This document shows, one piece after another, positions 716 through 55,672 of a DNA stretch of 64,000 nucleotides. The stretch spans positions 1 to 64,000 of the IMG/VR virus record IMGVR_UViG_3300029696_000106. One strand, given 5' to 3'. The notes below the pieces were generated by a model. The model did no database searches and was not told the DNA's origin. It saw only the letters and a program-made list of their open reading frames with translations. A program made the position numbers and the translations under genes. The stretch is from a virus (lineage: Duplodnaviria; Heunggongvirae; Uroviricota; Caudoviricetes). Position 1 is the stretch's first letter. Each line of letters opens with the position of its first letter.

Positions 716-1057
716 ATGGCTATTGATTATGAAGCCTTGGGCAAGCGTATTTCAAATGCCCGCAAACAAATTGGTATCACACAGGAGGCGCTCGGTGAAC
801 AACTTAACATGACCCGTAAACACATCAGTGTTATCGAAACTGCTATCAACCGTCCCAGCCTGGATACCCTGGTTGATATCGCAAATGCACTGAATGTATC
901 TGCAGATGACCTTCTCGTAGACAGCCTGACGCACTCGGCATCTACTGCAGATTCTGAGATTCACCGTCTGCTTTTGGACTGCAATACAACGGAACAGGAA
1001 ATTCTTACCCGCACCGTAAAGGAACTGAAAGCAATTTTGTATGGTTTAGGAATCTGA
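716..1057 (+). CDS. XRE-family helix-turn-helix transcriptional regulator
   Basis: N-terminal ISNARKQIGITQEALGEQLNMTRKHISVIE matches the Cro/C1-type HTH; an RBS AGGAGG lies upstream. Confidence 0.75.
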   Translation: MAIDYEALGKRISNARKQIGITQEALGEQLNMTRKHISVIETAINRPSLDTLVDIANALNVSADDLLVDSLTHSASTADSEIHRLLLDCNTTEQEILTRTVKELKAILYGLGI

Positions 1058-1221: not shown

Positions 1222-1554
1222 TTACTTTTTCGGCTTAAACTTTGCGCTATAAGCATTTACTGCTGCATCGTGGATAAGCCATCCAAATTTTCTCAAAAAG
1301 TCCAATCGCTCTTCATCAGTCATCCATTTTGCAAGTGTATGAAGAGCTCCCTCGTATCGTTCATTTTCTTTTCCGTTAAAAAACTTACCTCCGGGTCCCT
1401 GCTTAAATCTGACAGGAATCCCATTTTTAATTATCGTCCAGACAGTTGAACCACCATCTGTCTGAAACATGTCCCCAACCATGCCGTCCAGTTCTCCGGC
1501 ATCCATTCTTTTTAGCAGTTCTCTTTCCTCACTCGTCATCTTCATCACCCCCAC
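1222..1554 (-). CDS. hypothetical protein
   Basis: 110-aa ORF with no recognisable motif; start position uncertain. Confidence 0.35.
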   Translation of the reverse strand: MGVMKMTSEERELLKRMDAGELDGMVGDMFQTDGGSTVWTIIKNGIPVRFKQGPGGKFFNGKENERYEGALHTLAKWMTDEERLDFLRKFGWLIHDAAVNAYSAKFKPKK

Positions 1555-2227
1555 AATCCTCTACTTTTATATCTTCCGAATCATACGCTCCCATTGGGTA
1601 TTCCCGAATCCAGCCTTCGATTTTTAATGTGTGGCCACATTCTGGACATTCATAGCAATCTTCAGAATTAAAGCTGTACACAAGATCCGGTCCCATACCA
1701 TTTTCTTTTTCGTAAGAGCTTTCATCATACATGAAGTCCTCAAGGTCAACATTTTCTTCATGACCGCAATGAGGGCATTTGACTGCTCTTTCCAGAGAAA
1801 CCGGCCGATATCCATACATATCCTCGATATCGATAAATTCTTCGCCTGCCGCTTCTTTTTCGCTGATGATGTCCCAATAATGCTGCGTCTGGAAAGTTTC
1901 AAATTCTGCGCTGTCATCCAGAAGGTTATCCAGCATTTTTAAGGCATTCCTCTTTCGTTCAAGTTCATCATTGATATACTGCTTCCGTTCACGGATTGCC
2001 TGTTCAAGATCAATTTCTCCTGCTTGAAGTTTTTTTATATCTCCACAGGTTAAGCCAGATTTTGTAAGGACAACAATCCTCTGCAGATTTTTGAAATCTG
2101 CTTCTGTATAATCCGTTGCCTTGTTTCCCACCGGCGGATGTTCTGGTTTGAAGATACCCTCACGCTTAAAGAGTTTTATGCGCTCTGCATCAATGCCTAA
2201 TTTTTCTTGTATTTCTTTTGGTCTCAT
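1529..2227 (-). CDS. MerR-family HTH regulator with a C-terminal double CxxC zinc ribbon
   Basis: MRPKEIQEKLGIDAERIKLFKREGIF is a MerR-type HTH; CPHCG...CPECG near the C-terminus; RBS AGGAGG 8 nt upstream of the ATG at 2227. Confidence 0.6.
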   Translation of the reverse strand: MRPKEIQEKLGIDAERIKLFKREGIFKPEHPPVGNKATDYTEADFKNLQRIVVLTKSGLTCGDIKKLQAGEIDLEQAIRERKQYINDELERKRNALKMLDNLLDDSAEFETFQTQHYWDIISEKEAAGEEFIDIEDMYGYRPVSLERAVKCPHCGHEENVDLEDFMYDESSYEKENGMGPDLVYSFNSEDCYECPECGHTLKIEGWIREYPMGAYDSEDIKVEDCGGDEDDE

Positions 2228-2337
2228 AACATTCGACCTCCTTTCTGAAACCGAGTATAGCACATAGGGACTTTGTCCCCGTCAAGCCCTAAATATCATT
2301 TTTTCTAGTTTTAAGGATACTCGATTCCAGTTTTATT

Positions 2338-2899: not shown

Positions 2900-5197
2900 T
2901 TATACAGCCTGCTCTCGTTTTGCTTTACTTCTCAGATATCTTCGGTACTGAACTGTGTTGTCATATACCCGGTACGGGGCATCAACCAGAGTCACCAGCC
3001 CGTCAAGACTGCATTTCTTAAATCCCAGAAAACTGGTCAGTGTCCTCTGATTTCCACAGGTGGGCAGCGTTACACCAAAATTCGTTTCATAAAGTACGAT
3101 GTCGCCTTTCACCGTTCCCTTTTTCATAAAAGCGCAGTAGATACCTTTTTCAAAATGGAGCAGGTCCGGTGCTTCCGCGATCCTCTCCGGCGTCATCTTC
3201 AATCGTCCTCTGTTCAAACTGGCGACCGCACCGTCAACCGGCTTTCCATCCACATCCCGAAACAGGCTGCCCTGCACATCCAGCCCATTCACCTTCAGCG
3301 GCATACCGGCGGCATTCTGTTCCGGCAGTTCTTTCAGGCAGGCAATGAAAAGGTCAAAATTCTTCTTCATAACCGTAAGGGCTCCCTGTTCCTGGCTCAG
3401 CGTTTCTTTTTCCTTTCGGAAACTCTCAATTCGCTGCCGGATATCCTTTGCCAGACTTGCATAGGCTTCGATTTCAGACCCTTCTTCATAGTCAGCATGG
3501 TAGAAGCTCGTACCAATATCATTTCCCGTCAGCCCATTTCGGATATCACTGTCAATCTCGTCCAATGTGATGTTGCCCTCCGCCAGTGATTCATTCAGTT
3601 CCAAATTCTGCTCCAGCACCGCATCCCGCATGGCCGTAACCTGACGGCCGATCGTCTCCTGCAGTTTTTCTTCCAGTTCCTTGATCTGGGCATCCAGCGT
3701 TTCCAGTCTTTCCACCGATACGCTGTTTCCTTTCATCTGCTGATACATCTGTTCACAGGCTTTATGAAAAAGTGTGCTGATTTCCGAAGCTTCATGATTT
3801 TTCTCATAATCCCGTTTCAGACGGTACAGCATTTCCATAAAGCTCTGCTCCAAGGCACATTCATGGATGCTTTCCGAAGGGCATCTTTCATTTGCTGCTT
3901 TTCTCTCGGCATCCGACAATCTCCCGTGTTTTTCCCTGCAGTACCGCTTCTGGTCCGGTGTGCCATTCTGTCTGGGCTTTTCGCCCTCACGCTTTCCCAT
4001 CTTCTGTTTGCACCGCCACACGGGATAAGCATATGCGTATTTTTCAAGGTAGATATCCGTATCGCCACCAGTTGCTGCAATGCTTCGGTCATCCGTGTAC
4101 CCGGTTGCCACACCTGTATAGGTCACACGGAAGAATCCCTCACCGCATTCTTTTCCGGCTCTTTCTCCATGTTCAAGAACCGCACCGCAAACTAGATTTC
4201 CAAATGGCGAGCCGGTGTATCCTCTCTTCTTCTTTTGAGCCGATACCGAATCTCCGACCTTGCTGGGCTTTTCATAAAGCATCGTCTGAGCCTTGTCCCA
4301 TGTACTGCGGTCAATGATGCCAACATGATGGTTTTCTACATAATAGCGAGGTGCCTCACCTTTGTTGATCGTGGACCGATGGGTCAGGAAATCCTTTGTG
4401 ATGGTCTTCTGCATCTCAATGTCACCCACATATTTTTCATTCCGAAGAACTGTGAGCACAGAACTTGCCGACCAGTTCTTTTTGTTCACCGTCTTTCTGC
4501 CAAGTTCATTCAGCTCCTTTGCAATACGGTTTGCCGTCTGTCCACATACATACCGTTCAAAAATATAGCGGACTGTTTTTGCCTGCTCCGGATTGATCAC
4601 CCACTCGCCGTTGGCACCCTTGTCGTATCCCAGCATCCGGTTCAGATCCACCTTGGGCTTGCCTGCCTGGAAATTCTTCTGGATTGACCAGCGGATGTTG
4701 TCCGAAATGGAACGGCTCTCATCCTGGGCCAGTGCGGAAAGAATGGTAAGGATCAATTCACCAGTCGCATCCAGCGTGTCGATATTCTCTTTTTCAAAGT
4801 AAACACCAACCGGCGGATTCTGCTGCCGAAGCTGGCGGACACAATTCAAGGTGTCCACCGTGTTTCTGGCAAATCGTGAAATCGACTTGGTCACGATATA
4901 ATCCAGCTTTCCGTCCAGGGCATCTGCCATCATGCGGTTAAAATCCTCACGGTGTTCCCTGCTGGTTCCTGATTTTGCCTCATCTGCATAAATGCCTGCA
5001 AATCTCCATCCGGGTTTGTTCGTGATCAGATTTGTGTAAAACGCTTTCTGTGTAGTGTAGGAAGTCTGCTGGCTTTCATCCCCCGTGGAGACTCGACAGT
5101 ATGCCGCCACACGGATATTGCTCTGCACCTTCAGCTGACCACCATTATGCACCGACCGCTTTGTAGCCGGTATCACTTCTACTTTTTTCTGTGTCAT
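2900..5197 (-). CDS. large serine recombinase (resolvase catalytic domain, recombinase domain, zinc-ribbon)
   Basis: VAAYCRVSTGDE catalytic Ser motif; KSISRFARNTVD; 765 aa. Confidence 0.85.
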   Translation of the reverse strand: MTQKKVEVIPATKRSVHNGGQLKVQSNIRVAAYCRVSTGDESQQTSYTTQKAFYTNLITNKPGWRFAGIYADEAKSGTSREHREDFNRMMADALDGKLDYIVTKSISRFARNTVDTLNCVRQLRQQNPPVGVYFEKENIDTLDATGELILTILSALAQDESRSISDNIRWSIQKNFQAGKPKVDLNRMLGYDKGANGEWVINPEQAKTVRYIFERYVCGQTANRIAKELNELGRKTVNKKNWSASSVLTVLRNEKYVGDIEMQKTITKDFLTHRSTINKGEAPRYYVENHHVGIIDRSTWDKAQTMLYEKPSKVGDSVSAQKKKRGYTGSPFGNLVCGAVLEHGERAGKECGEGFFRVTYTGVATGYTDDRSIAATGGDTDIYLEKYAYAYPVWRCKQKMGKREGEKPRQNGTPDQKRYCREKHGRLSDAERKAANERCPSESIHECALEQSFMEMLYRLKRDYEKNHEASEISTLFHKACEQMYQQMKGNSVSVERLETLDAQIKELEEKLQETIGRQVTAMRDAVLEQNLELNESLAEGNITLDEIDSDIRNGLTGNDIGTSFYHADYEEGSEIEAYASLAKDIRQRIESFRKEKETLSQEQGALTVMKKNFDLFIACLKELPEQNAAGMPLKVNGLDVQGSLFRDVDGKPVDGAVASLNRGRLKMTPERIAEAPDLLHFEKGIYCAFMKKGTVKGDIVLYETNFGVTLPTCGNQRTLTSFLGFKKCSLDGLVTLVDAPYRVYDNTVQYRRYLRSKAKREQAV

Positions 5198-5216
5198 ATG
5201 CTCTCCTCCGTTTCCT

Positions 5217-7208
5217 TCATATCTTTTTTCCGTTCCGACGCTTTCTATACTCTACTTGAACCGGTTCTCCAAGGATCTCTGCTTCATTCTCCGCAAACTT
5301 TGGTTTTCCATCTTTGCCATATACCCGATAATCCTTGAAGTCCTTTATAGTCCTTCTGGCTCCTGAAGCGATAAATTCCATTCCGTAAATGGTCCGGTAA
5401 TGGATCACATCTCCGTCCACTCTGCCAGATTCAATATTTACGGCATACATTTCCCGGCTGAAGGTTAGCATATCTGGTGTACTCAAGAACACACCCGATT
5501 CCGTCCACTGCGGTTCTTTATCATCCAGACCATGCACCACTAGCTTCTGTCCATAGCGGTTTTGCTCCGGCAGGGCCAGCAGTTCCTCCAGAAAATATTC
5601 GTACCTCTTTTTCAGAATGATACCGCCTTCACTGCTTTCTTCCAAAATGTGTAGTTCGTTTTCCAGTTCTTCTTTCCGCTTCAGAATATCCTTCAGCAGT
5701 TCATTGTACATTGCCTCGGCACTTCCGGCCGCAGGTGTGTAAACACCATCCACACGCTGTTGATCCATCCCCTCCATAATAGCGTCCATCTGAATGCTCC
5801 CATCCCGAATGGACTCCTGTAAGCTCTCCTGCAGGAAAACCCGTTCCTGCTCTGCCATTTTCTTCTGTGCTTCCATCTGCTTTTTCATAAGGCGTTTACA
5901 TTCCTGTTCCAGCTTCTGAAGCAGTTCCCTGAGTTCCAAAATCCGTCCTGAATGGTCTTCCGGCTCCCTCTGGCATTCACGGTATTTGACCGCCAGCTCC
6001 GACTGCTCTTTGTTTTCCTCGTAATCCCGTTTCAAGCGGTAAAGCATCTCCATAAAGCCTTGTTCAATAGCGACCTCATAAAGCTCCTCTGTGCAGTCTT
6101 TATCCGAACAGCGCATCTTCCCAACACCATAAATCGCAAGTCCCTGCCGTTCCTTGGTATCTTCAATGGACTCTGCATCCACCCAGTATGCGGCAATCTT
6201 TCTCCTCTTGTGGACCATCGTCTTTCCGCACGCTGGACACGAAAGGTTTACATAGCAGATATTGAGAGGATCACGGCTTAGTAGCGGCGGCCTCCGTTTC
6301 ATTTCACTTTGCACGATCAACCAGGTTGCCCGGTCGACGATCGGTGCGTGGTGGTCCCTGATGTAATACTTTGGAAGCTGCCCTCTGTTCGGAACCGCCT
6401 TATGGGAAAGAAAATTGCTGGTCACATATTTCTGCATTTCCAAATCGCCCACATACTTCTCATTTAGGATCACATTCGAGAAGCTGCTGGGGTTCCAGTC
6501 CGTGCCAGATACCGTTTTCCAGCCTCGCTCGTTCATCTCTTTAATGATAGTTGCACGGCCGGCTCCGCAGGCATATCTCCGAAAAAGGTAACGCACCGGT
6601 TCCGCCTGCTCTTCATTGATGATCCATTCTCCGTTTTCCCCTTTGTCATATCCGATCATCCGGCTTAGATGGACCATCGGCTTCCCTTCCTGGAACCGCT
6701 TCTGATAAGACCAGTGGATGTTATCCGAAATGGAATGGCTTTCTTCCTGGGCAAGTGCGGAGTAAATGGTCAGGATCACCTCACTGGTGGAATCCAGAGT
6801 GTTGATGTTTTCCTTTTCAAAAAAGATGCCCACAGGAGGTGTCAGCTGTTTCAGCTGTCTTGCGCAGTCGAGGGTGTCCACGGTATTCCTTGCGAATCTC
6901 GATATGGATTTTGTGACTATTAAATCGATTTTCCCATTTCTCGCATCCTCCAGCATCTGGTTGAACTCATCCCTATGCAGGCGGCTTGTTCCGGTGATTC
7001 CCTCATCTGCATAAATTCCTGCGAATGTCCAGCCCGGATGCCGCTGTATCATATCCGTGTAGAATGCCTTCTGGGTCCGGTAGGACGTTTTCTGTTCATC
7101 TGAATCTGTGGATACTCTGCAGTAAGCTGCCACCCTTAACCCCTTCGGCTTTTCCTGGGCAGCCTTTTGAGCCGCCGCTTCCTTTATCAATCGTAAAACC
7201 TCTGACAT
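5217..7208 (-). CDS. large serine recombinase, paralogue 2
   Basis: VAAYCRVSTDSDEQ; KSISRFARNTVDTLD; CPACG zinc ribbon; 663 aa. Confidence 0.85.
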   Translation of the reverse strand: MSEVLRLIKEAAAQKAAQEKPKGLRVAAYCRVSTDSDEQKTSYRTQKAFYTDMIQRHPGWTFAGIYADEGITGTSRLHRDEFNQMLEDARNGKIDLIVTKSISRFARNTVDTLDCARQLKQLTPPVGIFFEKENINTLDSTSEVILTIYSALAQEESHSISDNIHWSYQKRFQEGKPMVHLSRMIGYDKGENGEWIINEEQAEPVRYLFRRYACGAGRATIIKEMNERGWKTVSGTDWNPSSFSNVILNEKYVGDLEMQKYVTSNFLSHKAVPNRGQLPKYYIRDHHAPIVDRATWLIVQSEMKRRPPLLSRDPLNICYVNLSCPACGKTMVHKRRKIAAYWVDAESIEDTKERQGLAIYGVGKMRCSDKDCTEELYEVAIEQGFMEMLYRLKRDYEENKEQSELAVKYRECQREPEDHSGRILELRELLQKLEQECKRLMKKQMEAQKKMAEQERVFLQESLQESIRDGSIQMDAIMEGMDQQRVDGVYTPAAGSAEAMYNELLKDILKRKEELENELHILEESSEGGIILKKRYEYFLEELLALPEQNRYGQKLVVHGLDDKEPQWTESGVFLSTPDMLTFSREMYAVNIESGRVDGDVIHYRTIYGMEFIASGARRTIKDFKDYRVYGKDGKPKFAENEAEILGEPVQVEYRKRRNGKKI

Positions 7209-7214
7209 TTTTCC

Positions 7215-9644
7215 TCACCCTTTCTTTACATATTTTTTCCGGTAGCAGTTATCCCGCATGGCCTGTCCGTCAAAATAAGATGCCGTATACCGGTAATCTT
7301 CTATATTACTGTACATGACAACCTCTGTCCTTGTGTCATCATACCAGTGAACCGTATAGTTCAACGGGGAATGGACCGTAATAGAAAGGACAAATGCCTT
7401 GCAGTAATCTGAGGTCACTCCATTCAAAAACTGCACCACGCCATCCCTTCCTTTCGGAAGTTCCTTCATCCATTCAATTGCCCGTTCTCTTCTCTCGTGG
7501 TCAGTCTCCAAATCCTCCCAGTACCCTTCCAGATACTCCAACCGTTCTTCCAGATGCTTTTTCTCATCCATATCCCGGTCAAGTTTTTCTTTCAACCTTC
7601 TGATTTTCTCAGCATTGCTCTGAATGACTGCCTCGTCGATGCTCTCATCTCCCAGCAGTTCACGTCTGGTCTGCATCACATCGTTCTGGCTTTCCAGAAG
7701 GCGCAGTTTTTTCCCACTGCTTTCCATTCCAATCTGGAGGGTGGCAATCTGCCGTTTGTAAAAAGCACGGTCCCGTTCCATAAAATCAGTGTGCTGGATA
7801 TTCTCCAGTCTTTTGATCATCTGCGGAACAAAGTCATCAGCTTCCTTTGTAAAACCTTCAAACTGCTCTCCGTAACGGCCGCTCATGATATCTGCCACTC
7901 CCACATTGTCATGAATTGGCTGTGTGCTCAGCCGGAATCGTTCAATGATTGCTTTACGGAAAGCCCTCACAATCTGCTCTTCATAGATTTTCTCGCAGTG
8001 GCAGATTCTCTTTCCATTATCAATCTCAGCTGTTGGGCAGTACCAGATAGGATAGTTTTTTGAATTTCTCACTCGGAAGAATCTGCCGCATTCTCCACAC
8101 AGGATCCTTCTTGAAAATGGCTTTGATCCTTTCTTTACTCCCTTCTCTTTCTTGGCGGCATTGGCTCTGCGGATTTCCTGAACAGTTTCAAACAGTTCTT
8201 CGTCTATAATCGCCGGATGGTGGTTTTTTACCAGATACTGCGGAAGTTCTCCATTATTCCGCTGGGTGTTATGGTTCAGAAAGTCCACGGTGAATTTTTT
8301 CTGGATCAGGACAGCTCCCGTATATCGTTCCCTTTGTATCATCTGAGAGATAATCCTTCCAGTCCATCCTTCTTCCAGATCACTGTTCAGCTGTCCTTTC
8401 TTTGAGTTCTTTTTTCTGGCTTTGACCGCCACGGTCTCAGGAGCTGGAATCCGGTCAAAATTCAAACCTCTGGCAACATCTGTATAGGCAGTACCCTCTG
8501 CCACCTCCTGAAAAATCCGGCGCACGATTTTTGCTTCTTCTTCCACAATTTCGATATCCCTATACTGATATCCACTTTCTGTCGTGACCATCTTTCCATT
8601 GTAGCGATACCCATATATGACCATGTTCTTTACCTCACCTCTCGGATAGCGCATCTTATTTCCAAGATTGATGTTTCTGGAAATACTCCGGCTTTCTTCT
8701 TGGGCAATCGCCGCAAGTGTCGTAAGAATGAAATCACTGGTCGGATCAGCTGTGTCCAGATTTTCTTTCTCAAAAAGGATCGTCACATTGTTGTCATGCA
8801 AAATATTAAGGGCGGTCATAAAATCCGCCGTATTTCTGGAGAAACGGGAAATCGACTTGCATACAATACGGTCTATTTTCCCTTCCCTGCAGTGCCGCAG
8901 AAGTCTTTTGAATCCAACACGCTTATCCTTGACCGTTCCTGAAATTCCATAATCGGAGTAAACCCCGATTGAATTCCAGTCTGGATTGTTTTCGATCAGC
9001 TGATGAAAATACCGTTCCTGCGTTTCGTAGGAGTTTTCCTGGTCACTGGAATCAGTGGAAACTCGAATGTAAGCGGCTACGTTCAGATGCCCTTCCTTTT
9101 CCTTTGTCCTGCGAAAAGAAGCTGTGGAAATAAATTCATTTTCTTCTTTCATTGCTTCTGCCTGTGGCTGGAAGACCGCCTCGAACTCACTTCTCAGCCC
9201 ACCGACCCGTTCCATAACAGGAACTGCCTGCTGCATTTTCTCCTTTGCAGCCAACGCCTTCTGGATCAGGGAAGCAATTCCGGCATCTCCGTTTTCCTTG
9301 GATTCGGATAACGGCAACTTTGTCTTTTTCTCTTTTTGTTTGGTAGACATCTCTTGGCGCACAACGCTTTCCTGCAAAAAAGAAGATGCAGCCGCCTTCT
9401 TATCAGATAGATCAGCTGCACCACTTTTTTCCTTCACCGCTTCATGGGATTTCTTTTCCTGCACAGGCATCTGAGTCACAGATGTGGTTTCCGGCAGGAC
9501 AGATTCGCCCTGTCCGGTCGCTGCCATCAACATCTTTGAAAGCTCGGCTGCTGAAGCATTCGGGCGGCTTTTCTGTTTCTGCTGTACGGTACTTTTGACC
9601 GTTGCGCTCTGCAGTTTCTGCAAAAAATCATTTGCTGTACTCAT
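7215..9644 (-). CDS. large serine recombinase, paralogue 3, with a ~190-aa low-complexity N-terminal extension
   Basis: Catalytic motif VAAYIRVSTDSSDQ only at about residue 195; KSISRFSRNTADF; CGECG zinc ribbon. Confidence 0.8.
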   Translation of the reverse strand: MSTANDFLQKLQSATVKSTVQQKQKSRPNASAAELSKMLMAATGQGESVLPETTSVTQMPVQEKKSHEAVKEKSGAADLSDKKAAASSFLQESVVRQEMSTKQKEKKTKLPLSESKENGDAGIASLIQKALAAKEKMQQAVPVMERVGGLRSEFEAVFQPQAEAMKEENEFISTASFRRTKEKEGHLNVAAYIRVSTDSSDQENSYETQERYFHQLIENNPDWNSIGVYSDYGISGTVKDKRVGFKRLLRHCREGKIDRIVCKSISRFSRNTADFMTALNILHDNNVTILFEKENLDTADPTSDFILTTLAAIAQEESRSISRNINLGNKMRYPRGEVKNMVIYGYRYNGKMVTTESGYQYRDIEIVEEEAKIVRRIFQEVAEGTAYTDVARGLNFDRIPAPETVAVKARKKNSKKGQLNSDLEEGWTGRIISQMIQRERYTGAVLIQKKFTVDFLNHNTQRNNGELPQYLVKNHHPAIIDEELFETVQEIRRANAAKKEKGVKKGSKPFSRRILCGECGRFFRVRNSKNYPIWYCPTAEIDNGKRICHCEKIYEEQIVRAFRKAIIERFRLSTQPIHDNVGVADIMSGRYGEQFEGFTKEADDFVPQMIKRLENIQHTDFMERDRAFYKRQIATLQIGMESSGKKLRLLESQNDVMQTRRELLGDESIDEAVIQSNAEKIRRLKEKLDRDMDEKKHLEERLEYLEGYWEDLETDHERRERAIEWMKELPKGRDGVVQFLNGVTSDYCKAFVLSITVHSPLNYTVHWYDDTRTEVVMYSNIEDYRYTASYFDGQAMRDNCYRKKYVKKG

Positions 9645-9823: not shown

Positions 9824-11302
9824 TTACAGTTTCTTGGCAAAATCAAGGCTGATCCAGCCATTACGCTTACCGGCATAGGCCTTCAGCAGACCCCAACGGG
9901 TTGCTCCCTCACCGTCTGCTTCCTCTACAATTGTAAATACGCCTTTTCCAGTGTACTGCCCGGTCTTAGCATAGTTCGTACCAGGTCCCTTACGGATATT
10001 AAGGTCACTGATTGAAACGCGTACCGCATACGGGCAGTTTGCCTTAACTTCCGGGTAGACTGCCTTACCCGCCGGGTCATAAACGAAATAGCCCGGATTG
10101 ACATCCGCACACTGCTTTGCGTAAGTCAGGTCATGGAAAGCACCCTTCTGAGAAGCCGCATTCTGCCAGCTTTTGCGGACACGGTACCAGCCGGAGATAA
10201 CCGTACCCTCAGAAGCCTTTGCCACATCATACTGCGTAAGGTTCCAACGCTCGATGATACTGCAAAGGTTCTGTACATAAGTGTGGCTGGTCGCATAACC
10301 ACCATCTTTGATCAGCTGTACCGCTTTCTTGTAATCCGTGCAGCCGGCCAGACCTTCATAGCGTTTCTTACTGCCGTTCATCGCACCGAGCAGATATGCG
10401 GCATGGTCGGTAATGGAATCCTCCACACAACTGTACTTTCGGAAGTCGGCTGTGATCGTGACCATCGAGCCATCGTCATTCTGCTCCTGTGTTTTCTTGG
10501 TATAGACAGACTTGCCATCCCAACTGCTGCCGCTCCAGCTGTTCCCGGAAAGCGAAGTCTTCATGCCAAAGCAGTTATTAGCATTCTGTGCCAGCTCAGA
10601 TTTACCGTAGCCGGACTCAAGAATGAACTGAGCCATTGACACGCAAGCAAGAATGCCAGTGGTTTTCTGGTTCGCAGTAAACAGCGGACCGATCTTTGCC
10701 ACAGCTTCTGCTTCCGAGAGATTTTTCAGCGAAGAAGCCTGCATGCCAGATGAGGATGAACCGCCCAGTGCTGCAGTCACCTTTGCGGCCAGATCACCCA
10801 TGCGGGCATACAGCCAGTTTCCAGGGCAGCTTTTGTTGGCAAACCAGCGGTGAACGGTCAGCACCATTTCATCTGCCGCCGGAGCATAGTTGAGTGTCTT
10901 ATTTTTATCACCCAGCCACAGGAGCTTCTTCTTCCCGTTACGCTTGCAGATATCGATACAGAGCTTGACGAGAGAGTCATATACAACACTGTTCATGGCA
11001 TACGGCTCATTCATGTCACTGGCACATTCGATGGTGACTGCTCTCTGGTCATTTTCCCTGCTGGACGAACACCAGCTGCGGTTCTTTTCCTCGACACAAA
11101 GCGACACACGACCGTCCGTACCGATGCCGTAGTTGCAGCTTGCCTGCCGAGATGAACTGATAAAGCAGCCGCAGATGCTTTCTGCAGAAAGCTGACCAAC
11201 CACGCAATGCGGAGTGATACGGTCGATGCTGTGGGTACGCTGCCCGGAATGGTTCGGGGAGAGTTTGGTGTAAACAACGAGTGGACTATTGGTATATCCC
11301 AT
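9824..11302 (-). CDS. multidomain endolysin: amidase_2, glucosaminidase, repeat motif, SH3b
   Basis: IDRITPHCVVGQ (amidase_2-like); FILESGYGKS...NNCFGMK (mannosyl-glycoprotein endo-beta-N-acetylglucosaminidase); GWYRVRKSWQNAASQKGAF repeat; C-terminal VRVSISDLNIRKGPG...GWISLD (SH3_3). Start set to MGYTNSPL from the GGAGG RBS. Confidence 0.8.
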   Translation of the reverse strand: MGYTNSPLVVYTKLSPNHSGQRTHSIDRITPHCVVGQLSAESICGCFISSSRQASCNYGIGTDGRVSLCVEEKNRSWCSSSRENDQRAVTIECASDMNEPYAMNSVVYDSLVKLCIDICKRNGKKKLLWLGDKNKTLNYAPAADEMVLTVHRWFANKSCPGNWLYARMGDLAAKVTAALGGSSSSGMQASSLKNLSEAEAVAKIGPLFTANQKTTGILACVSMAQFILESGYGKSELAQNANNCFGMKTSLSGNSWSGSSWDGKSVYTKKTQEQNDDGSMVTITADFRKYSCVEDSITDHAAYLLGAMNGSKKRYEGLAGCTDYKKAVQLIKDGGYATSHTYVQNLCSIIERWNLTQYDVAKASEGTVISGWYRVRKSWQNAASQKGAFHDLTYAKQCADVNPGYFVYDPAGKAVYPEVKANCPYAVRVSISDLNIRKGPGTNYAKTGQYTGKGVFTIVEEADGEGATRWGLLKAYAGKRNGWISLDFAKKL

Positions 11303-11365
11303 AATGATTTCCTCCATAAAAGAAAAGAGACCCGGATCACTCCGAGTCCCCTTTAGGTCTATTGG

Positions 11366-11668
11366 TTATTCTCTATTCCTGTCTGCTTCTTCCAATATCC
11401 TACAGACAAACTTCATGATTGACATCGGCTTTTCACCGCCTATCCCATTCACTTTCCATGCTACACTGGAAATTGTGGAAATGGCACTGAGGACACCGCT
11501 CTTCTTAACACCTTTCCTGTCTGCAACATACTGTAAGAGCTGACCTGGTTTCAGATCCGGCCGATGCCAATGCAGGACGATTGCATCCCTCAGATACTCA
11601 CATCCCTTATAGTACAGCGTAATGCCATACGGTCTTAACACATCTTCTGCCATGAGCTTTTCATTCAT
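11366..11668 (-). CDS. stand-alone Spo0A C-terminal (DNA-binding) domain-like protein
   Basis: YGITLYYKGCEYLRDAI...VAWKVNG aligns with Spo0A_C GVPAHIKGYLYLREAI...VAWSRGN; there is no receiver domain. Confidence 0.55.
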   Translation of the reverse strand: MNEKLMAEDVLRPYGITLYYKGCEYLRDAIVLHWHRPDLKPGQLLQYVADRKGVKKSGVLSAISTISSVAWKVNGIGGEKPMSIMKFVCRILEEADRNRE

Positions 11669-11747
11669 TTCCAACACTCTCCTTTTCCCAAGTATACCTT
11701 TCGTCATCAAGAAATTGAAGTCCTAAAAATGTGTCGAATTGCGCCGT

Positions 11748-12452
11748 TTAAGGGATCAGCAGTTTCATGCCGACCCGGATAGCGTTGGAAGTCAGCCCAT
11801 TCAGCACACGGATATCCGCACAGCGGCCGCCGCTCCCCAGTTCCCTTTCTGCGATCTTCCAGAGATTATCACCGGGAACCACAGTATAGATCTTGCTGGC
11901 TGTGAAGGCATAGGTATCCGCACTGTTAAGAACGTAGGCCAGACCACTCACCGCTTCCGGGCACTTTATTTTCAGCCAGCCCGCACAGAATTCCACGATT
12001 TCAATCAGTGCGTTCCTTTTGTAAACGGTCACGACTTCTGCGCCAGTGTCCGGCATCTCCCGGATATTCATGAGGGTCTTGAGTTTACCGTAGGCAATGG
12101 TTGCCGGAAGCTCCTCTGCAGTCGGGAACTCGTTCTCATCCACTTCAGCCTCTGCTTCTTTCTCCGCTGGGGTATCTTCCACAGGGGCTGTGGTTTCCGG
12201 CTTTTCTTCCGGGATATCGTCCACGACTGCTTTCTCTTCACTCTCATCTGCACCAGTATCTGGTACAGCCTCTTCCGGATAGATCACGTTGCCGTCATTG
12301 TCGAACACACGGCTGCCGGGGTTTTCATCACACTTGGCTTTTGCATTCGCCAGCAGACGGTACGCTCCCAACTGGGATGCCTCATCTTCCCAGACTTCAC
12401 GCACACGGTAATAGCCGTTTGTCAGCTTTGCGGGATACTCTTTCTTACTCAT
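11748..12452 (-). CDS. LysM-domain protein carrying the same YRVR cell-wall-binding-like motif as the endolysin
   Basis: N-terminal GYYRVREVWEDEASQLGAYRLLANAK; C-terminal YTVVPGDNLWKIAERELG...GMKLLIP (LysM); RBS AGGAGG. Confidence 0.6.
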   Translation of the reverse strand: MSKKEYPAKLTNGYYRVREVWEDEASQLGAYRLLANAKAKCDENPGSRVFDNDGNVIYPEEAVPDTGADESEEKAVVDDIPEEKPETTAPVEDTPAEKEAEAEVDENEFPTAEELPATIAYGKLKTLMNIREMPDTGAEVVTVYKRNALIEIVEFCAGWLKIKCPEAVSGLAYVLNSADTYAFTASKIYTVVPGDNLWKIAERELGSGGRCADIRVLNGLTSNAIRVGMKLLIP

Positions 12453-12949: not shown

Positions 12950-12985
12950 GGGGCATAAAAAACAGGCGGTTTCTCTGCCGCCCTT
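12950..12985 (-). terminator. rho-independent terminator after the tail-fibre gene
   Basis: Minus-strand GGCGGCAGAGAAACCGCC followed by TGTTTTTTAT. Confidence 0.4.
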
Positions 12986-13063: not shown

Positions 13064-15712
13064 TTATTTTCCGAATGCCCGGATCACAGATCCTACCACA
13101 CATTCTCCGATTCTGGCGTAGCCCTCCGTACTGCAATGGAGCTGGTCGCCATTAAACGGATACGGCGAAGATCCCGTATATTTTTTCAGAATAATGCTGC
13201 CATTCCGCTTTTGGTAATATGACTGTCCGTTCACGTACCGCTGCGGTGCACTTCCAACCACCCTGCCGGATGCATCCATCTGATACTTGGCATACTGCTC
13301 GTTCACAGCATTCTTCTGTGCGCCAAAGACACTCCATGTCCTGCGGTTGATCCCGCTCTCATGCCAGAGATCACAGACTGCCACATTATTTGCCTGCGCC
13401 ACAGCCTTGATCGTATCTGACAGTTTTTCCATTGTCTGGCCAGTTCCGGTCGGATATTCTTCGTATCCGTCTGCATCCACATACGGATATTTGCCCGCAC
13501 AATGCGGCGTTGCCACCAGCACATGACATAGCAGATTCCCGGCATCCTCCAGTTCTTCATAGATGCGGTTCAAAAGATACTGGATTCGCCCGCAGATGGT
13601 TTCCTGTTCTGGATGACAGTCTCCGACCGAGCCAAGAACCGTTGCTCTTTCGTTGTAGGCCGGAAGCACCACGATCAAGCTGACGCCTTCCACGTCAGCG
13701 GCCATCAGCGGTCGCAGGACACCATTCTTATCCGTTTCTGCATTGTACGTTCCATCCAGACCGTTGTCACCGTCCGTCATCCGAAGGATTCCGATGCCGC
13801 CCTTTGCATGGGTAGCAACATTCATACCGAGCAATTCTTCCAGCTTCTTCTGCCATTTTCCAGCCGCCGTAATGCTGTCACCAATGACCAAAGCCTTCTT
13901 CCCTTTCCAGCTACCGGACAGTTCCGCATATCCGGCAGTAACAGCTTTCTCTGCGGTATCAGATGCCCCAGCATGATCTGCCTTTTTCGCTGTCTCCGCA
14001 TTTTCAGCATGATCCGCTTTTACTGCCACTTCCGCTTTTTCTGTAAGAATGGCGTGTGTCGCATTCTTCACAGCGGAAGCACGTTCCGTTATGCTGCTGT
14101 GACTGAGCGCCTCAATCTCCTCATTGGAAAGCCCGGTCACGTTCAGCACCCACATGGTCACAACAAAGGAAGTGTAATTGGAACCCGTCAGCTGCACCGC
14201 AAAATTCAGATTATCCTTTCCACCGGCATATTCATAAACCAGATTCATTTGAAACGGAAGCGTTGCTTTATTCAGTGTTCCACACGGCACACGCTTTGCC
14301 CAATTTGGAATGCCCGGTTCGATGATGCCAATGGATACCTCTCCCAGCTGTGTGTCATCCGTTTCTACAGATTTCACCCTGCCAAAGACAAGATACTTCC
14401 CGGCAGCCAGACCACTCAGCCGTACTCCGCCGAACACGCCCCAGTCTTCGTTGCGGGTCACGGCAGCCTTTACCCACGCATACATTGTGTCCTTTTCCTG
14501 AAACTTGCTGGAGAAAGGAATCATTTCAGAAAAGACAGGACATCCATATGCTACATTGCCCAGCATTTCCCGTGTCTGGTCTGAAATGCCGGTTCTGTCT
14601 GCATACGGAACGCTCATGACTTTTCCAGCAATGCCCCATGTGTCATAATACTGAAGGATGCTGTCTTCAACCGGACTGCTGCTGATCAGAGACAGAACTT
14701 TCTGCAATTCCTCATCGCTCTGCCCGGTCACATCCAACAGAACGCATCGGCTGTCACACTCTACCACGGCCTCCTTCCTTGCAACGCACGGCGAAATGTC
14801 CAGCCGGTATGCATTCTCCAGAATCTCTCCGAAGAATACTACATAGCTTTCACTTCCGTGGGCAACTCTTATCGCCTTCGTCACATGAGTATTCAGATTT
14901 GCACCTTTGGAATCGTACTGATAGCAGCTCACACCGGCACAGGAGCCGGAAATCTCCCGAATCTTGGAGATGAACAGATATTTTCGGAATTTGCCCATTA
15001 GCATATTGGTAAAGCGATGGTAGAACTGACCGTAATCCGTAGTTCCCGTGATCCGGTAATCCAGAAATTCTCCTGCTTCACATTTAGCCCCCAGCAGAGC
15101 CGGCATCGCAGCCTTTGGGAACACCTCACCCAGATTACCATTGGAACCGGCAAGTGCCAGCTTTGCTCCGGTGATCCCATTCTCCACAGCCAGACTGTAC
15201 TGCCCACGGATTGCTTCACCAGCGGACGGATACACCGTTCCATCCTGCCCAACCCGGACATCAACCAGTTCCGCCGCATAATCTGCCTTAGCGTCTGTAG
15301 AAGCTGTCACGTTTGCATCCAGCCGCTTGTTCATCTGTTCCACAGCTTTGTTCATGGCATCTTCTGTTTTCTGCATGGCAGACTGTGCATCGGATACTTT
15401 GGTGTTTACCCGGCTCTCTGCTTCCGATACTTCTTTGCTCATGGATGCTTTCGTTTCCGAAAGATCCTTGTGCATTCCTTCCACATCTTCTGCAACATCC
15501 GTTTCCAGTCTGTACATCTGGGCGTTGAAATGACTGCACAGGCTCCAATAATCCGTATCGGACAGCACTGTACCTGCAGGGACTGGCTTTCTGGAAATAT
15601 AACCATCCCCACTTTCCGCGTCCAGAACGATTGTCAGTTCCTCATATTCCTTTTTCTGATTCCATACGCCATCGTGTTTCGGAATGATCCGCTTACCCTT
15701 AAAAGTTCCCAT
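13064..15712 (-). CDS. tail fibre / receptor-binding protein with a C-terminal SGNH/GDSL hydrolase domain
   Basis: GKKALVIGDSITAAGKW (block I) and DQLHCST (block V) at the C-terminus; the N-terminal ~170 aa is paralogous to ORF 18701..19573. Confidence 0.75.
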   Translation of the reverse strand: MGTFKGKRIIPKHDGVWNQKKEYEELTIVLDAESGDGYISRKPVPAGTVLSDTDYWSLCSHFNAQMYRLETDVAEDVEGMHKDLSETKASMSKEVSEAESRVNTKVSDAQSAMQKTEDAMNKAVEQMNKRLDANVTASTDAKADYAAELVDVRVGQDGTVYPSAGEAIRGQYSLAVENGITGAKLALAGSNGNLGEVFPKAAMPALLGAKCEAGEFLDYRITGTTDYGQFYHRFTNMLMGKFRKYLFISKIREISGSCAGVSCYQYDSKGANLNTHVTKAIRVAHGSESYVVFFGEILENAYRLDISPCVARKEAVVECDSRCVLLDVTGQSDEELQKVLSLISSSPVEDSILQYYDTWGIAGKVMSVPYADRTGISDQTREMLGNVAYGCPVFSEMIPFSSKFQEKDTMYAWVKAAVTRNEDWGVFGGVRLSGLAAGKYLVFGRVKSVETDDTQLGEVSIGIIEPGIPNWAKRVPCGTLNKATLPFQMNLVYEYAGGKDNLNFAVQLTGSNYTSFVVTMWVLNVTGLSNEEIEALSHSSITERASAVKNATHAILTEKAEVAVKADHAENAETAKKADHAGASDTAEKAVTAGYAELSGSWKGKKALVIGDSITAAGKWQKKLEELLGMNVATHAKGGIGILRMTDGDNGLDGTYNAETDKNGVLRPLMAADVEGVSLIVVLPAYNERATVLGSVGDCHPEQETICGRIQYLLNRIYEELEDAGNLLCHVLVATPHCAGKYPYVDADGYEEYPTGTGQTMEKLSDTIKAVAQANNVAVCDLWHESGINRRTWSVFGAQKNAVNEQYAKYQMDASGRVVGSAPQRYVNGQSYYQKRNGSIILKKYTGSSPYPFNGDQLHCSTEGYARIGECVVGSVIRAFGK

Positions 15713-44598: not shown

Positions 44599-45062
44599 TC
44601 GACCCAGCCCCCTTTCACGATTGCCCAGTCTGCAAGATGCATCTTCTGCTGTCCGCTCCATGCAATGTCCTCTAACGCTTCCTCAGTTCCGCAGCGGTTG
44701 CAGATCTGAATGTCCGCCCTTCGGCTGAGTGCCTGCTGCTGATGGTCGTAGCAGTCAGGCTTTGCTCCGCACCTGGGGCAACGTGGGCCGGTCTGTCGCG
44801 TTTTACCAAGGCGGTCGAGCGACACCTTGACCTCGGCATCCGTTGCCACACGGTGGCAACTGTCCGCACCGTAGGAAACGTTCAGATGGCTTCTGGTATC
44901 CCAGCTCACTAAGATGTTTCCGGCATCATCGACCCCGTTGCAGGTTCCCTGCGTTCCGATGGGCGGTGCCTGCCTGTCATCCATCTCATCGAGGACGATC
45001 CGGCATCCGACCGGGAACTCTTTTCTCAACTTCTTGACCGTTTTCTGATCTGCGAAATTCAT
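44595..45062 (-). CDS. DUF4314-domain protein with a C-terminal Cys4 zinc ribbon
   Basis: FPVGCRIVLDEMDDRQAPPIGTQGTCNGVDDAGNILVSWD; CPRCG...CNRCG. Confidence 0.6.
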   Translation of the reverse strand: MNFADQKTVKKLRKEFPVGCRIVLDEMDDRQAPPIGTQGTCNGVDDAGNILVSWDTRSHLNVSYGADSCHRVATDAEVKVSLDRLGKTRQTGPRCPRCGAKPDCYDHQQQALSRRADIQICNRCGTEEALEDIAWSGQQKMHLADWAIVKGGWVE

Positions 45063-45538
45063 GCCTGCACCTCCTCGATCATCCGCTGGGCGGCATCCTT
45101 ATCCATGCATTCCTTCAGCGCACCTTCGAGGATGTGCATCGGGAAGCGGAATGCCTTATAGCCGTCATGCAGGACTTTGTAGTAATACCGGCTCGGTGCG
45201 CGGTGTCCAAAGTCGTTCTCCATGATGTAGACCATTGCGGTCACCATCTCCGGCTCTGCCCCTTCCCGGAGCAGTTCGATGTTCAGGTCTTCCTTGCGGT
45301 AGTAGTTCGGGTAGCCCTCATAGAGGTCGAGGTTCTCTTCGTCCCTTTCCGAGATCTCCCACACCAGAACCGGCGTGTTCTTCTTCGGGTTCGGTGCGAT
45401 GGTGGCGCAGCCGCGGAACAAAAGCTCCCAGCCTGCCAGCACCGCCTGTCCTGCAATTTTTGCATCCGGGCATCGGTCTGCCATCTGCTCCACCGACAGG
45501 TTGCTGCCGTAGGCGATGTAATATTTCTTGTTCTTCAT
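45059..45538 (-). CDS. gamma-glutamyl cyclotransferase-like (AIG2/GGCT fold) protein
   Basis: YYIAYGSNLSVEQMADRCPDA...YEGYPNYY; start refined to MKNKKYY. Confidence 0.6.
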   Translation of the reverse strand: MKNKKYYIAYGSNLSVEQMADRCPDAKIAGQAVLAGWELLFRGCATIAPNPKKNTPVLVWEISERDEENLDLYEGYPNYYRKEDLNIELLREGAEPEMVTAMVYIMENDFGHRAPSRYYYKVLHDGYKAFRFPMHILEGALKECMDKDAAQRMIEEVQA

Positions 45539-45577
45539 TTGAATCTCTCCCTTCGGTTTTCTCCGCTCTTGTCTGGC

Positions 45578-45640
45578 GGTATGGTATATATCACTCTTTT
45601 GCCCTGATTTATCAAGGCCGATGTGCATCATATACTGCAC
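45578..45640 (-). promoter_or_regulatory. promoter cassette, copy 8 (variant)
   Basis: CCTTGATAAATCAGGGCAAAAGAGTGATATATACCATACC. Confidence 0.4.
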
Positions 45641-45668: not shown

Positions 45669-46190
45669 TTACATCATCTGCCGCTTCTTCAGATACCGGA
45701 CGGCTTCCGTCCTTCCGATACTGGCTGCCAGTCCACGCTTCAGTGTGTCCAGCGGAAATCCCCAGTCGCTGTATCCGCCGTGCAGCAGTTCAAAATACTC
45801 GGCATCCGGGCAGCCAAGCCGCCGGTCCTCGTGCATCACATAAGCGATGCAGGGCTTTGCCTTTTTCATGCGGTTCCCGTTCAGGTTCCAGACCGGAAGC
45901 TGGAACTGCTTCTTGTAGTAGTATCGTGGGCAGCCCTCGTACCGGTCCAGCAGGAGCTCATCGTATTCTGAGAGCTTCCAGACCACTGCTGGTACGCTTT
46001 CATTGGCATCCTGCTCGATGGTGGCATAGCAGCCGGTCTTACTCTTTTTGAACAGGAGCCGGTAGCCCTTGATCTCGGTCGTGCCGACCACCACAGCGTA
46101 AGGGCATCTCTTTCCCATCCGCTCCATGTCGAGGTTGCTTCCGTAGGCAAGGTAATATCTGGATGGGACTCGGCTAATCAGTTCAAACAT
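45669..46190 (-). CDS. gamma-glutamyl cyclotransferase-like protein, paralogue 2
   Basis: YYLAYGSNLDMERMGKRCPYA...YEGCPRYYY. Confidence 0.6.
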   Translation of the reverse strand: MFELISRVPSRYYLAYGSNLDMERMGKRCPYAVVVGTTEIKGYRLLFKKSKTGCYATIEQDANESVPAVVWKLSEYDELLLDRYEGCPRYYYKKQFQLPVWNLNGNRMKKAKPCIAYVMHEDRRLGCPDAEYFELLHGGYSDWGFPLDTLKRGLAASIGRTEAVRYLKKRQMM

Positions 46191-46419
46191 CCGCCTCACC
46201 GTCCTCCCTGCCAGTGAATTCCACACCCTGGAAATCCTCCGTCCCAAGCTCGATCTGGCTGTCCTGCCACCAGTCCTCTGCCACACGCTGGGCTTCCTCC
46301 ACGGTCGGCTCTTTCATTTCGGATTCATAAATGGTCACCGTTCTCTGGTAGGTCTCAGTGATGGTCACCTTAAAGGCCCTGCCTCCCGGTGTGTTTTCAT
46401 TTTTTAACGTGCTTTTCAT
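46183..46419 (-). CDS. hypothetical protein
   Basis: 78 aa. Confidence 0.4.
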   Translation of the reverse strand: MKSTLKNENTPGGRAFKVTITETYQRTVTIYESEMKEPTVEEAQRVAEDWWQDSQIELGTEDFQGVEFTGREDGEADV

Positions 46420-46486: not shown

Positions 46487-47425
46487 TTATTTGTTCCGCC
46501 AGGATGCGTTGCCCTCCATGTTCCGCAGAAGGATCTCCCTTGCCGTTGCAAATTCATCCCCGATGAATCCCAGCCTCAGCATCCAGCACCGCATGGCGTA
46601 CTTTTCGTTGTCGGTCTGCTGGGGCTTCGGGCTTGCCGTTCTGACCATCTTAGCAAGCTGGCTCATTGCGAGGCAAAGCTGGATGTAGGCTTTCATCTCA
46701 CCGGCGTGCAGTCCGTTGCGCCTTCCGTCCGCTGGGTCTGCGAATTGGAAAAGGCGGAATTCAATGGTCCCTTTTGTGAAGGTGGCATGGAGGTTCAGCA
46801 TATGGTACCGGCTTGAATTGTAGTGGGCATTCCGGTTTTCCCAGCTGGAACCGTTGCCTTCGTACCAGATGTCTTCCAGCTTGCGCATGGTGGTCGGCTT
46901 CTCGCGGTTCAGCCGGTCGAGGAAGCGGTGGTTGACCACCTGGCAATATTGTCCGGTGCGCCCTGCATCGATCCGGATGGCTCTGCCGATCTGCTGTTCG
47001 TGCGCCGCCATGATGTTCACAAGGTTGCGGATGGTCTTTGCGGTGTGGTCGCCTTTGCCGATGTGGATGTGGACCCCGCATCCGCGGCTTGGGCCGCTCT
47101 TTGCGCCTGCCTTGCGGAGCAGCCGGATGATTTCCTGCAGGGGTTCGATGTCGTCGTAGGTGAGGATCGGGGTGACCAGTTCGCATTTTTCTGCGTCCGG
47201 TCCGTAGATGCTCACATTCCTCTGGAATTTCCAAACCCTGCCCTGCTGGTCCTTGCAAGCCCAGCTGTAATATCCGTACTCGCCAGCGGCGTTCCATGCT
47301 CTGGTTCCGAAGTACTCAGCGACCTTTCTTGCCGCTTTTTCTCTGGTGATGTTGTTCATCTCGATCTCAACTCCGATGGTCTGGTTCTTCATGGCTTCAA
47401 TCTGCTCTCTTGTTTTATCGTTCAT
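46487..47425 (-). CDS. putative amidoligase (GS/GCS2-like, Amidoligase_2 family)
   Basis: IGVEIEMNN...GCGVHIHIG...TIEFRLFQF motifs; start MNDKTREQ after AAAGGAG. Confidence 0.55.
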   Translation of the reverse strand: MNDKTREQIEAMKNQTIGVEIEMNNITREKAARKVAEYFGTRAWNAAGEYGYYSWACKDQQGRVWKFQRNVSIYGPDAEKCELVTPILTYDDIEPLQEIIRLLRKAGAKSGPSRGCGVHIHIGKGDHTAKTIRNLVNIMAAHEQQIGRAIRIDAGRTGQYCQVVNHRFLDRLNREKPTTMRKLEDIWYEGNGSSWENRNAHYNSSRYHMLNLHATFTKGTIEFRLFQFADPADGRRNGLHAGEMKAYIQLCLAMSQLAKMVRTASPKPQQTDNEKYAMRCWMLRLGFIGDEFATAREILLRNMEGNASWRNK

Positions 47426-47451
47426 GGTATGTTCTCCTTTGTTTTTTCCTT

Positions 47452-47522
47452 GTTTTCCCTTTCGGTATGTGCATATTACCGTCAGGTGCACATAATAGCA
47501 AGGCCATAAAAGAACATATATT
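47452..47522 (-). promoter_or_regulatory. promoter-leader cassette, copy 7
   Basis: TTATGGCCTTGCTATTATGTGCACCTGACGGTAATATGCACATACCGAAAGGG. Confidence 0.45.
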
Positions 47523-47657
47523 CGACAAATATCGAGAGGAATGATCGTGTACATTTCTGCGGTTTATCCGCTTGATAATGTACATTTTCAGAGTTAATAT
47601 CGGTACAATGGAAGAGAGGCTCGCATATTTTCCGGCCCCCATTGGGGGCTTGGGAGC

Positions 47658-55257: not shown

Positions 55258-55672
55258 TGGTTTTTTCCTCCATTTCCGTCCAGCCAAGCACTTTATTCCC
55301 ACAAGAGCAGGTGTAGTAAAGTGTGCTTAGATCGTATTCCTCCATATACGGGTGCATCTTCTTATTGCACTTCGGACAATGTCGGACAGGAATCACAGAG
55401 CCCCGCATATCAATGCCACCGTCACAGGAAAGGTCAAAAGGATAAATCTCTGTTCGTCCTTCTCCATCTTCCGTCAGTACCAAACAATAGGGTCTTGAAA
55501 CCTCATTGCATTCCCGCATGACCACATTGTCATCATCATCCACATCGACTGCCATGACCGTAGTTCCAATCGGCAACGGCATCATCTGCTTGATGCTGAG
55601 ATTTTCATATCCAGCCGTATTCCTCCCAAGCCAGTGCATCCCCATATTTTTGTTCACAGTCTTTTCCATCAT
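55250..55672 (-). CDS. zinc-ribbon protein (hypothetical)
   Basis: CPKCNKK...CSCGNK. Confidence 0.4.
   Translation of the reverse strand: MMEKTVNKNMGMHWLGRNTAGYENLSIKQMMPLPIGTTVMAVDVDDDDNVVMRECNEVSRPYCLVLTEDGEGRTEIYPFDLSCDGGIDMRGSVIPVRHCPKCNKKMHPYMEEYDLSTLYYTCSCGNKVLGWTEMEEKTNE

Follow-up and report, generated by a model that had tools for sequence, protein, structure and literature searches.

The 64,000 nucleotides (nt) of viral DNA analysed here (the window; all coordinates are positions within it) are a temperate siphovirus-type prophage of Blautia, in which a gene for a protein of 100 amino acids (aa) related to Spo0A's C-terminal effector domain (Spo0A_C) lies among the lysis genes. The minus strand carries every gene of the lysis region, and the Spo0A_C-like gene is situated between the gene for a LysM protein and that for the endolysin. 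The remainder of the window is phage-type, with genes for terminase, portal, capsid, primase, methylases and others; an open reading frame (ORF) of 1984 aa (23034..28988) was assigned to a presumed tape-measure protein by its length and location alone. The features of the region are as follows.

15712..13064, minus strand: tail-fibre-like protein with a GDSL/SGNH esterase C-terminal end, 882 aa
12925..12506, minus strand: holin, Phage_holin_4_1 (Pfam E 4e-45; TIGR01593 E 1e-31; phrog_199)
12452..11748, minus strand: LysM protein, 234 aa (Pfam LysM)
11669..11747, minus strand: 5′ part of the insertion (79 nt), absent as a whole from sister phages
11668..11366, minus strand: receiver-less Spo0A_C homologue, 100 aa (Pfam PF08769)
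11354..11323, minus strand: stem-loop with T-run, terminator- or attenuator-like (-23 kcal/mol, z -2.8)
ORF 9824..11317, likely start ATG 11302, minus strand: endolysin with Amidase_2, Glucosaminidase, YRVR module and SH3b
9644..2900, minus strand: three large serine recombinases in a row, following the endolysin directly

The ORF of the 100-aa protein begins with the ATG at 11668 and is preceded by a ribosome-binding site, AAGGAGAG (11677-11684), 8 nt upstream. The protein matches the Pfam family PF08769 with 26.6 bits (E 6.3e-6; profile positions 3-71 of 104), which clears the gathering cut-off of 25 by a narrow margin. The gene contains no receiver domain, and only 79 nt lead back from it to the stop codon of the previous gene. 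With TIGR02875, the model for full-length Spo0A, the protein reaches 16.2 bits where 200 would be required, and by that measure it is not a Spo0A orthologue. The AlphaFold2 model (pLDDT 88.7) consists of five helices (residues 3-14, 21-35, 41-52, 56-74 and 84-99), and the top seven matches in a Foldseek search of the PDB were all chains of 1LQ1 or 1FC3, with TMq values of 0.74-0.78, the next match having a TMq of 0.42. The alignment given to AlphaFold consisted mostly of true Spo0A, so that this fold match is partly built in and counts for less; the Pfam match is support independent of that alignment. The original prediction for this DNA had placed at 11366..11668, between the holin and the endolysin, a gene aligning with the Spo0A effector domain and devoid of a receiver, and the coordinates, the gene order, the profile match and the fold all agree with it.

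Searches for relatives of the 100-aa protein returned few. Among 1.84 billion representatives, phmmer found only its own lineage, one stand-alone relative of 117 aa (39% identity) and some multi-domain proteins with tandem Spo0A_C domains. No match was obtained by tblastn against 50,697 deposited phage genomes, no family covering the protein was found in PHROGs or PADLOC, and its viral fold neighbours in BFVD were only five proteins of uncultivated gut phages (98-163 aa), named 'Spo0A C terminal'. By sequence the protein is nearly an orphan. Two of the tandem-domain proteins, P0034 (439 aa) and P0031 (372 aa), contain three or four Spo0A_C domains and are receiver-less as well; VERAIR..AIEVAW is kept in some of their repeats only.

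In order to compare the protein with Spo0A over the whole domain, we aligned it with Spo0A-C of Bacillus subtilis and 60 genuine Spo0A sequences. The helical fold with its helix-turn-helix is that of the Spo0A effector domain (1LQ1, 1FC3), and the core with the motifs KGxxYLRxAI, VAW and KP..F is held in common, including G15, K21, G22, Y25, L26, R27, A29 and I30 and, further on, L44, A49, V59, I63, W71, K80, P81 and F87. The isoelectric point (pI) is likewise similar, 9.2 for the 100-aa protein and 8.9 for Spo0A-C. Unlike Spo0A, and in addition to the receiver, the protein lacks 4 residues in the B-C loop and 12 residues opposite B. subtilis DSISSLFGYTVS. The latter segment is helix alpha-E, the region that activates sigma-A; it faces a gap of 12 columns in the alignment, and at its place the AlphaFold2 model has a 9-residue loop between helices 56-74 and 84-99. 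The recognition helix, SRVERAIRHAIEVAW, is invariant in 60/60 Spo0A sequences, whereas the 100-aa protein has SGVLSAISTISSVAW, with eight of the invariant residues replaced (R, E, R, R, H, A, I and E). Of these residues, E213, R214 and R217 (B. subtilis numbering) are reported by Zhao et al. 2002 to contact bases. The receiver-less protein keeps the helix-turn-helix scaffold, has lost the parts with which Spo0A reads DNA and activates transcription, and is therefore probably not a simple "always-on Spo0A".

Receiver-less spo0A genes have been reported in human-gut phages, where they were proposed to act without host signals and, in this way, as a takeover of host sporulation by the phage (Schwartz et al. 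2023, mBio, PMC10294663), and Spo0A_C (PF08769) is enriched on mobile elements of gut Firmicutes (Jiang et al., bioRxiv 10.1101/214213). The gene described here is of this already published kind, as it comprises the effector domain only and belongs to a human-gut phage with a Clostridia host; the exact protein has also been named by NCBI, where the identical sequence is a 'Spo0A C-terminal domain-containing protein [Blautia faecis]'. A scan of IMG/VR with the motif KGxxYLR[DE]AI, in which the recognition helix is not involved, retrieved its own lineage (10 contigs), several full-length spo0A genes and three other receiver-less genes, namely L035 beside an integrase/XRE switch, L041/L042 beside lysis genes, and L037. 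The recognition helix SRVER..RHA is kept in L035, L037 and L041/L042, and the alpha-E segment, as read from the sequences, is full-length in L035 and L041/L042 and shortened in L037; the 100-aa gene, unlike these, has lost both the recognition helix residues and alpha-E. The idea of a 'constitutive Spo0A' would consequently suit L035, L037 and L041/L042 better than the stripped-down 100-aa variant. "Truncated Spo0A" is thus not one thing, given that some copies still have everything needed to read DNA and to activate, and the 100-aa copy has the scaffold only, and because the copies differ, counting all such genes as "constitutive Spo0A" would mislead experiments and metagenomic inference. What is new here is the evidence that the 100-aa copy, unlike the other phage copies, cannot work like Spo0A, and its discrete insertion into a three-gene lysis cassette.

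Some further candidates were set aside. Fourteen stool contigs labelled 'UNVERIFIED Bacteriophage sp.', retrieved by tblastn with B. subtilis Spo0A-C from the phage collection, were not counted, since the two that were inspected look bacterial (a recN-spoIVB-spo0A locus, and oxidoreductase/LysR neighbours). A stool contig with the 'UNVERIFIED Bacteriophage sp.' label but of bacterial appearance, MT835614.1 (L031, 667-3842), has a receiver-less Spo0A_C ORF of 113 aa after recN and spoIVB, the usual place of spo0A; its recognition helix is partly degenerate (TVEKDVQNAISAAW), and the ORF would represent a Spo0A truncated in its native place on a chromosome. The IMG/VR loci L033, L045, L046, L048, L049, L050 and L056 carry full-length spo0A with a receiver; they are probably host DNA flanking prophages, or mis-assigned contigs, and could inflate counts of 'phage spo0A'.

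The presence of the gene in the lysis cassette is polymorphic. In the sister loci L026-L030 the order is holin, LysM gene and endolysin, with ~70 bp between the last two and no Spo0A_C gene. In alignment A5 the Spo0A_C gene and the 79 nt upstream of it (~380 bp) are present or absent as a single block, bounded by the stop codon of the LysM gene and the Spo0A_C-like gene's own stop codon. Since the sister phages are without the gene at the same site, the gene with its ~80-bp upstream region is a clean insertion, that is, an accessory unit of ~380 bp acquired in one sub-lineage ahead of a resident hairpin. This hairpin (11323-11354), called terminator-like with 14 pairs, stands immediately upstream of the endolysin ribosome-binding site and is found in phages with and without the insert (also L013, L020, L021 and L025-L028); RNAalifold gives it an 11-bp stem with compensatory changes in 4 pairs. 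That it might be the insert's own terminator was ruled out, as the alignment with insert-free phages shows a resident element. Read-through or antitermination at this hairpin may be needed for the endolysin to be expressed, and a second terminator-like hairpin (12983..12964) is located between the tail-fibre gene and the holin.

Phage 'morons' are accessory gene units inserted between conserved phage genes. The unit resembles them in its presence/absence polymorphism at one precise site between collinear phages, in the promoter-like hexamers conserved upstream and in the hairpin with T-run downstream, and it may behave as one, consisting of upstream region, ORF and downstream hairpin; it departs from them in that the hairpin is resident in the cassette and not imported, and the promoter is a candidate only. 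In L011 (3213-3533) and L012 the 5′ half of the Spo0A_C-like gene is joined out of frame to an endolysin remnant, which leads straight into the recombinase gene, and there is no endolysin. These loci were considered as an endolysin-free cassette type and are instead a deletion derivative of the prophage.

The ratio of non-synonymous to synonymous substitution rates (dN/dS) of the Spo0A_C-like gene is 0.147 at a dS of 0.83, and the ORF is intact in 12/12 full-length variants, down to 80% identity. The gene is under purifying selection and is a functional gene. In the 12 intact variants alpha-A, the loop and alpha-B vary at 3/30 positions, compared with 29/70 elsewhere (Fisher p 0.002), in a sample that is small and made up of related, phylogenetically non-independent sequences.

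The 79 nt that accompany the gene contain TTCGACA at 11732-11738, which on the plus strand reads TGTCGAA, a perfect 0A box. It is followed by a candidate weak promoter consisting of TTCAAT (11714-11719), a 17-nt spacer and TATACT (11691-11696). Between the two insert lineages, which are separated by 80% protein identity and a dS of 0.83, TTCGAC(A/G), TTCAAT and TATACT are invariant and the 17-nt spacer has diverged, which is how a weak promoter preceded by a regulatory-type site should behave. The conserved upstream block was found only once in the window. Three exact copies of TGTCGAA occur within 193 bp (23986-24178, minus strand) inside the ORF 23034..28988 and are probably a by-product of repeated coding sequence.

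The product of the gene is most likely a small helix-turn-helix regulator whose target would have shifted from the canonical 0A box to another. Expression would take place in the lysogen, from the gene's own weak promoter and not solely with the late lysis genes, because little would be left to regulate for a protein that appears only minutes ahead of lysis; the promoter may respond to host Spo0A~P via the conserved upstream TTCGAC. As the activation surface is absent, the protein would act only as a repressor or blocker and never by activation, its presumed purpose being the adjustment of host stationary-phase or sporulation decisions, or of decisions of the prophage itself. The anatomical and evolutionary description given above is very probably correct and is much firmer than this mechanism as a whole (a retargeted regulator expressed in the lysogen), which we propose tentatively.

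Several observations weigh against the proposed regulator and its promoter. The -35 hexamer matches in 3/6 positions and a consensus promoter scan did not call the promoter, which would also give a very short leader; transcription of the gene might be no more than part of that of the late lysis operon. The conservation of the motifs comes, in essence, from two lineages. Only one 7-mer makes up the 0A-like box, and the window shows no enrichment of TGTCGAA (10 matches, 8.6 expected). In the second lineage the box is CGTCGAA (6/7), which retains the positions G2, C4 and G5 that are specifically contacted in the 0A box (PMC3485338). As to the protein, the putative recognition helix is not especially conserved within the lineage, 7/19 positions being variable, and the pattern of variability hints at protein contact at least as well as at DNA reading.

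It is such a contact that the main rival to the retargeted regulator invokes. The alpha-A/alpha-B/alpha-F surface would bind a putative partner of the Spo0A effector domain without any reading of DNA and so damp or delay sporulation; candidate partners are the receiver domain of Spo0A, a second effector domain, RNA polymerase and phosphorelay or regulatory proteins, and the gene might be induced by Spo0A~P via the upstream box. The low variability of alpha-A, the loop and alpha-B beside a variable helix-turn-helix mildly favours this explanation, with which the loss of the DNA-reading residues, the conserved TTCGAC upstream and the purifying selection are also consistent. The conserved KG..YLR.AI residues, however, belong to the fold core in all Spo0A, so that their conservation may be structural, and the variability was drawn from the small, non-independent sample mentioned above; we regard this explanation as doubtful. 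Its more specific form, in which Spo0A~P would switch the gene on via TTCGAC and a decoy unable to read 0A boxes or to contact sigma-A would veto or delay sporulation, making it a phage anti-Spo0A, is rather unlikely. If true, it would spare the prophage being locked in within the spore, or let induction come first. The original prediction had instead seen in the gene a constitutively DNA-binding Spo0A mimic that could bind host 0A boxes and tune sporulation or stationary-phase genes. In such a model the receiver-free effector would switch Spo0A-controlled genes on or off whatever the phosphorelay signals. The Spo0A_C fold and family membership and the basic character of the protein are in line with this, isolated Spo0A DNA-binding domains bind legitimate targets unphosphorylated (PMC3485338), and such an action was proposed for truncated phage spo0A (Schwartz et al. 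2023, PMC10294663). A faithful mimic nevertheless seems improbable, considering the eight replaced residues of the recognition helix, a helix which is kept in L035, L037 and L041 and which, as the one that faces DNA, is variable among close relatives of the 100-aa protein, and the deletion of the sigma-A-activating helix, which makes Spo0A-type activation unlikely; on these grounds the claim is not supported for this protein, and the other phage copies fit it better.

Two further explanations take the gene's location or its losses at face value. Its position in the cassette, on the same strand as the late genes and directly upstream of the conserved hairpin that precedes the endolysin ribosome-binding site, would suit a regulator of the lytic cycle, expressed with holin and endolysin and tuning endolysin expression (e.g. 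at the hairpin) or the timing of lysis. The gene is absent from sister phages in which holin, LysM gene, hairpin and endolysin are the same, which implies that lysis does not need it, and a helix-turn-helix fold is atypical for an RNA antiterminator; such a role is very unlikely. A functionless, decaying fragment of a captured host spo0A would account for the missing receiver domain, the missing helix alpha-E and the lost recognition residues, and for the existence of the deletion derivatives L011/L012, but is hardly credible in view of the low dN/dS at a dS of 0.83, an ORF intact in all 12 full-length variants, a good ribosome-binding site and a confidently folded model.

The host is, by NCBI names, Blautia faecis or Blautia spp. 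The assembly collection was indexed and read in blocks, so that counts refer to blocks; the identical 100-aa protein was indexed in more than 6000 of them, always in the same cassette, and these include complete and cultured Blautia genomes. One scan of the GTDB species-representative genomes returned no relative, so that the prophage is strain-variable. Among human gut assemblies it is extremely common, and its natural forms with and without the gene offer a convenient comparison. Blautia has been recovered from ethanol-treated stool (PMC7801112), and metagenome-assembled genomes of Lachnospirales were predicted to be non-sporulating by one tool (PMC12536801).

The neighbouring LysM protein was analysed in the same manner. 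It consists of a YRVR module (residues 10-60), a variable acidic linker, an SH3b-like region (~126-176) and a LysM domain (189-234). The last is well supported by Pfam (40.1 bits, cut-off 20.9, E 4e-10), and the SH3_3 match (residues 129-176, 20.4 bits) is sub-threshold. Residues 10-60 are 47% identical over 51 aa to residues 373-423 of the endolysin (BLASTP E 1e-12). The endolysin itself combines Amidase_2 (E 5e-13) and Glucosaminidase (E 1e-30) with SH3_3 (26.3 bits); its start at ATG 11302 is probable and gives 492 aa, the length of the gene calls in 10 identical loci. In the LysM protein no catalytic domain was found with Pfam, NCBIfam or PHROGs, and the PHROG 'endolysin' matches span the YRVR and LysM parts only. 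In other phages of gut Clostridia, the combination of YRVR module and LysM makes up the wall-binding half at the C-terminus of Amidase_2 endolysins (e.g. XTK83357 of phage NatCom_21982). The protein corresponds to this half by itself, with an SH3b-like region added and the catalytic domain missing. The original prediction of a LysM domain combined with the YRVR motif of the endolysin at 11748..12452 is confirmed by these matches, and its suggestion of an accessory wall-binding protein gains support from the domain content and the module shared with the endolysin.

The LysM gene is a functional gene as well; its dN/dS is 0.073 overall and lies at 0.03-0.06 across the domains, compared with 0.11 across the linker. 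Its homologues (740 matches) greatly exceed those of the 100-aa protein in number and diversity, the ones listed being stand-alone proteins of ~200-242 aa, and the gene is present in every relative examined. It is therefore part of the conserved core of a native three-gene cassette comprising the holin, the wall-binding protein and the two-enzyme endolysin. The view that two extra genes had been placed between holin and endolysin holds for the Spo0A_C-like insertion and fails for the LysM gene, a constant part of the cassette.

The N-terminus of the LysM protein, as read from its sequence, has no hydrophobic stretch and hence no signal peptide. The protein is most likely released as a wall-binding partner that would reach the wall through the holin lesion and bind peptidoglycan together with the endolysin, either side by side or as a complex. 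According to three papers (PMC4777826, PMC7098653, PMC9430671), the catalytic and wall-binding parts of PlyC are separate gene products, and CTP1L, Lys170 and LysIME-EF1 obtain an extra wall-binding domain from an internal start. The arrangement found here is similar to these multi-polypeptide endolysins in having a non-catalytic wall-binding polypeptide beside a full endolysin, with a homologous module in common, and is different in that the polypeptide comes from a separate upstream gene, carries an extra LysM and is only 47% identical, in one module. A wall-binding gene devoid of a catalytic domain is a candidate third lysis component in Gram-positive phages of gut Clostridia and is relevant to endolysin engineering.

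Outside the cassette, the tail-fibre-like protein (13064-15712) has a GDSL/SGNH domain that is possibly receptor-modifying or depolymerising, an arrangement common to the relatives. The first of the serine recombinases is 809 aa long, with a low-complexity extension of ~185 aa ahead of the resolvase domain, and the recombinases are followed by a MerR-like gene (1529..2263) and, on the plus strand, by an XRE-type helix-turn-helix gene (716..1057). The minus strand between 44227 and 47554 carries a cluster with an Amidoligase_2 protein (46487..47554), a pair of ORFs for GGACT/AIG2-like gamma-glutamyl cyclotransferases (45669..46286 and 45059..45640), DUF4314 and DUF3846. Also on the minus strand are a 708-aa C5 methylase (49011..51137), an N6/N4 methylase fused to ParB_N (51121..52392), a complete S-adenosylmethionine synthetase (54190..55302) and an N-terminally extended PemK/MazF-like toxin (58592..59161).

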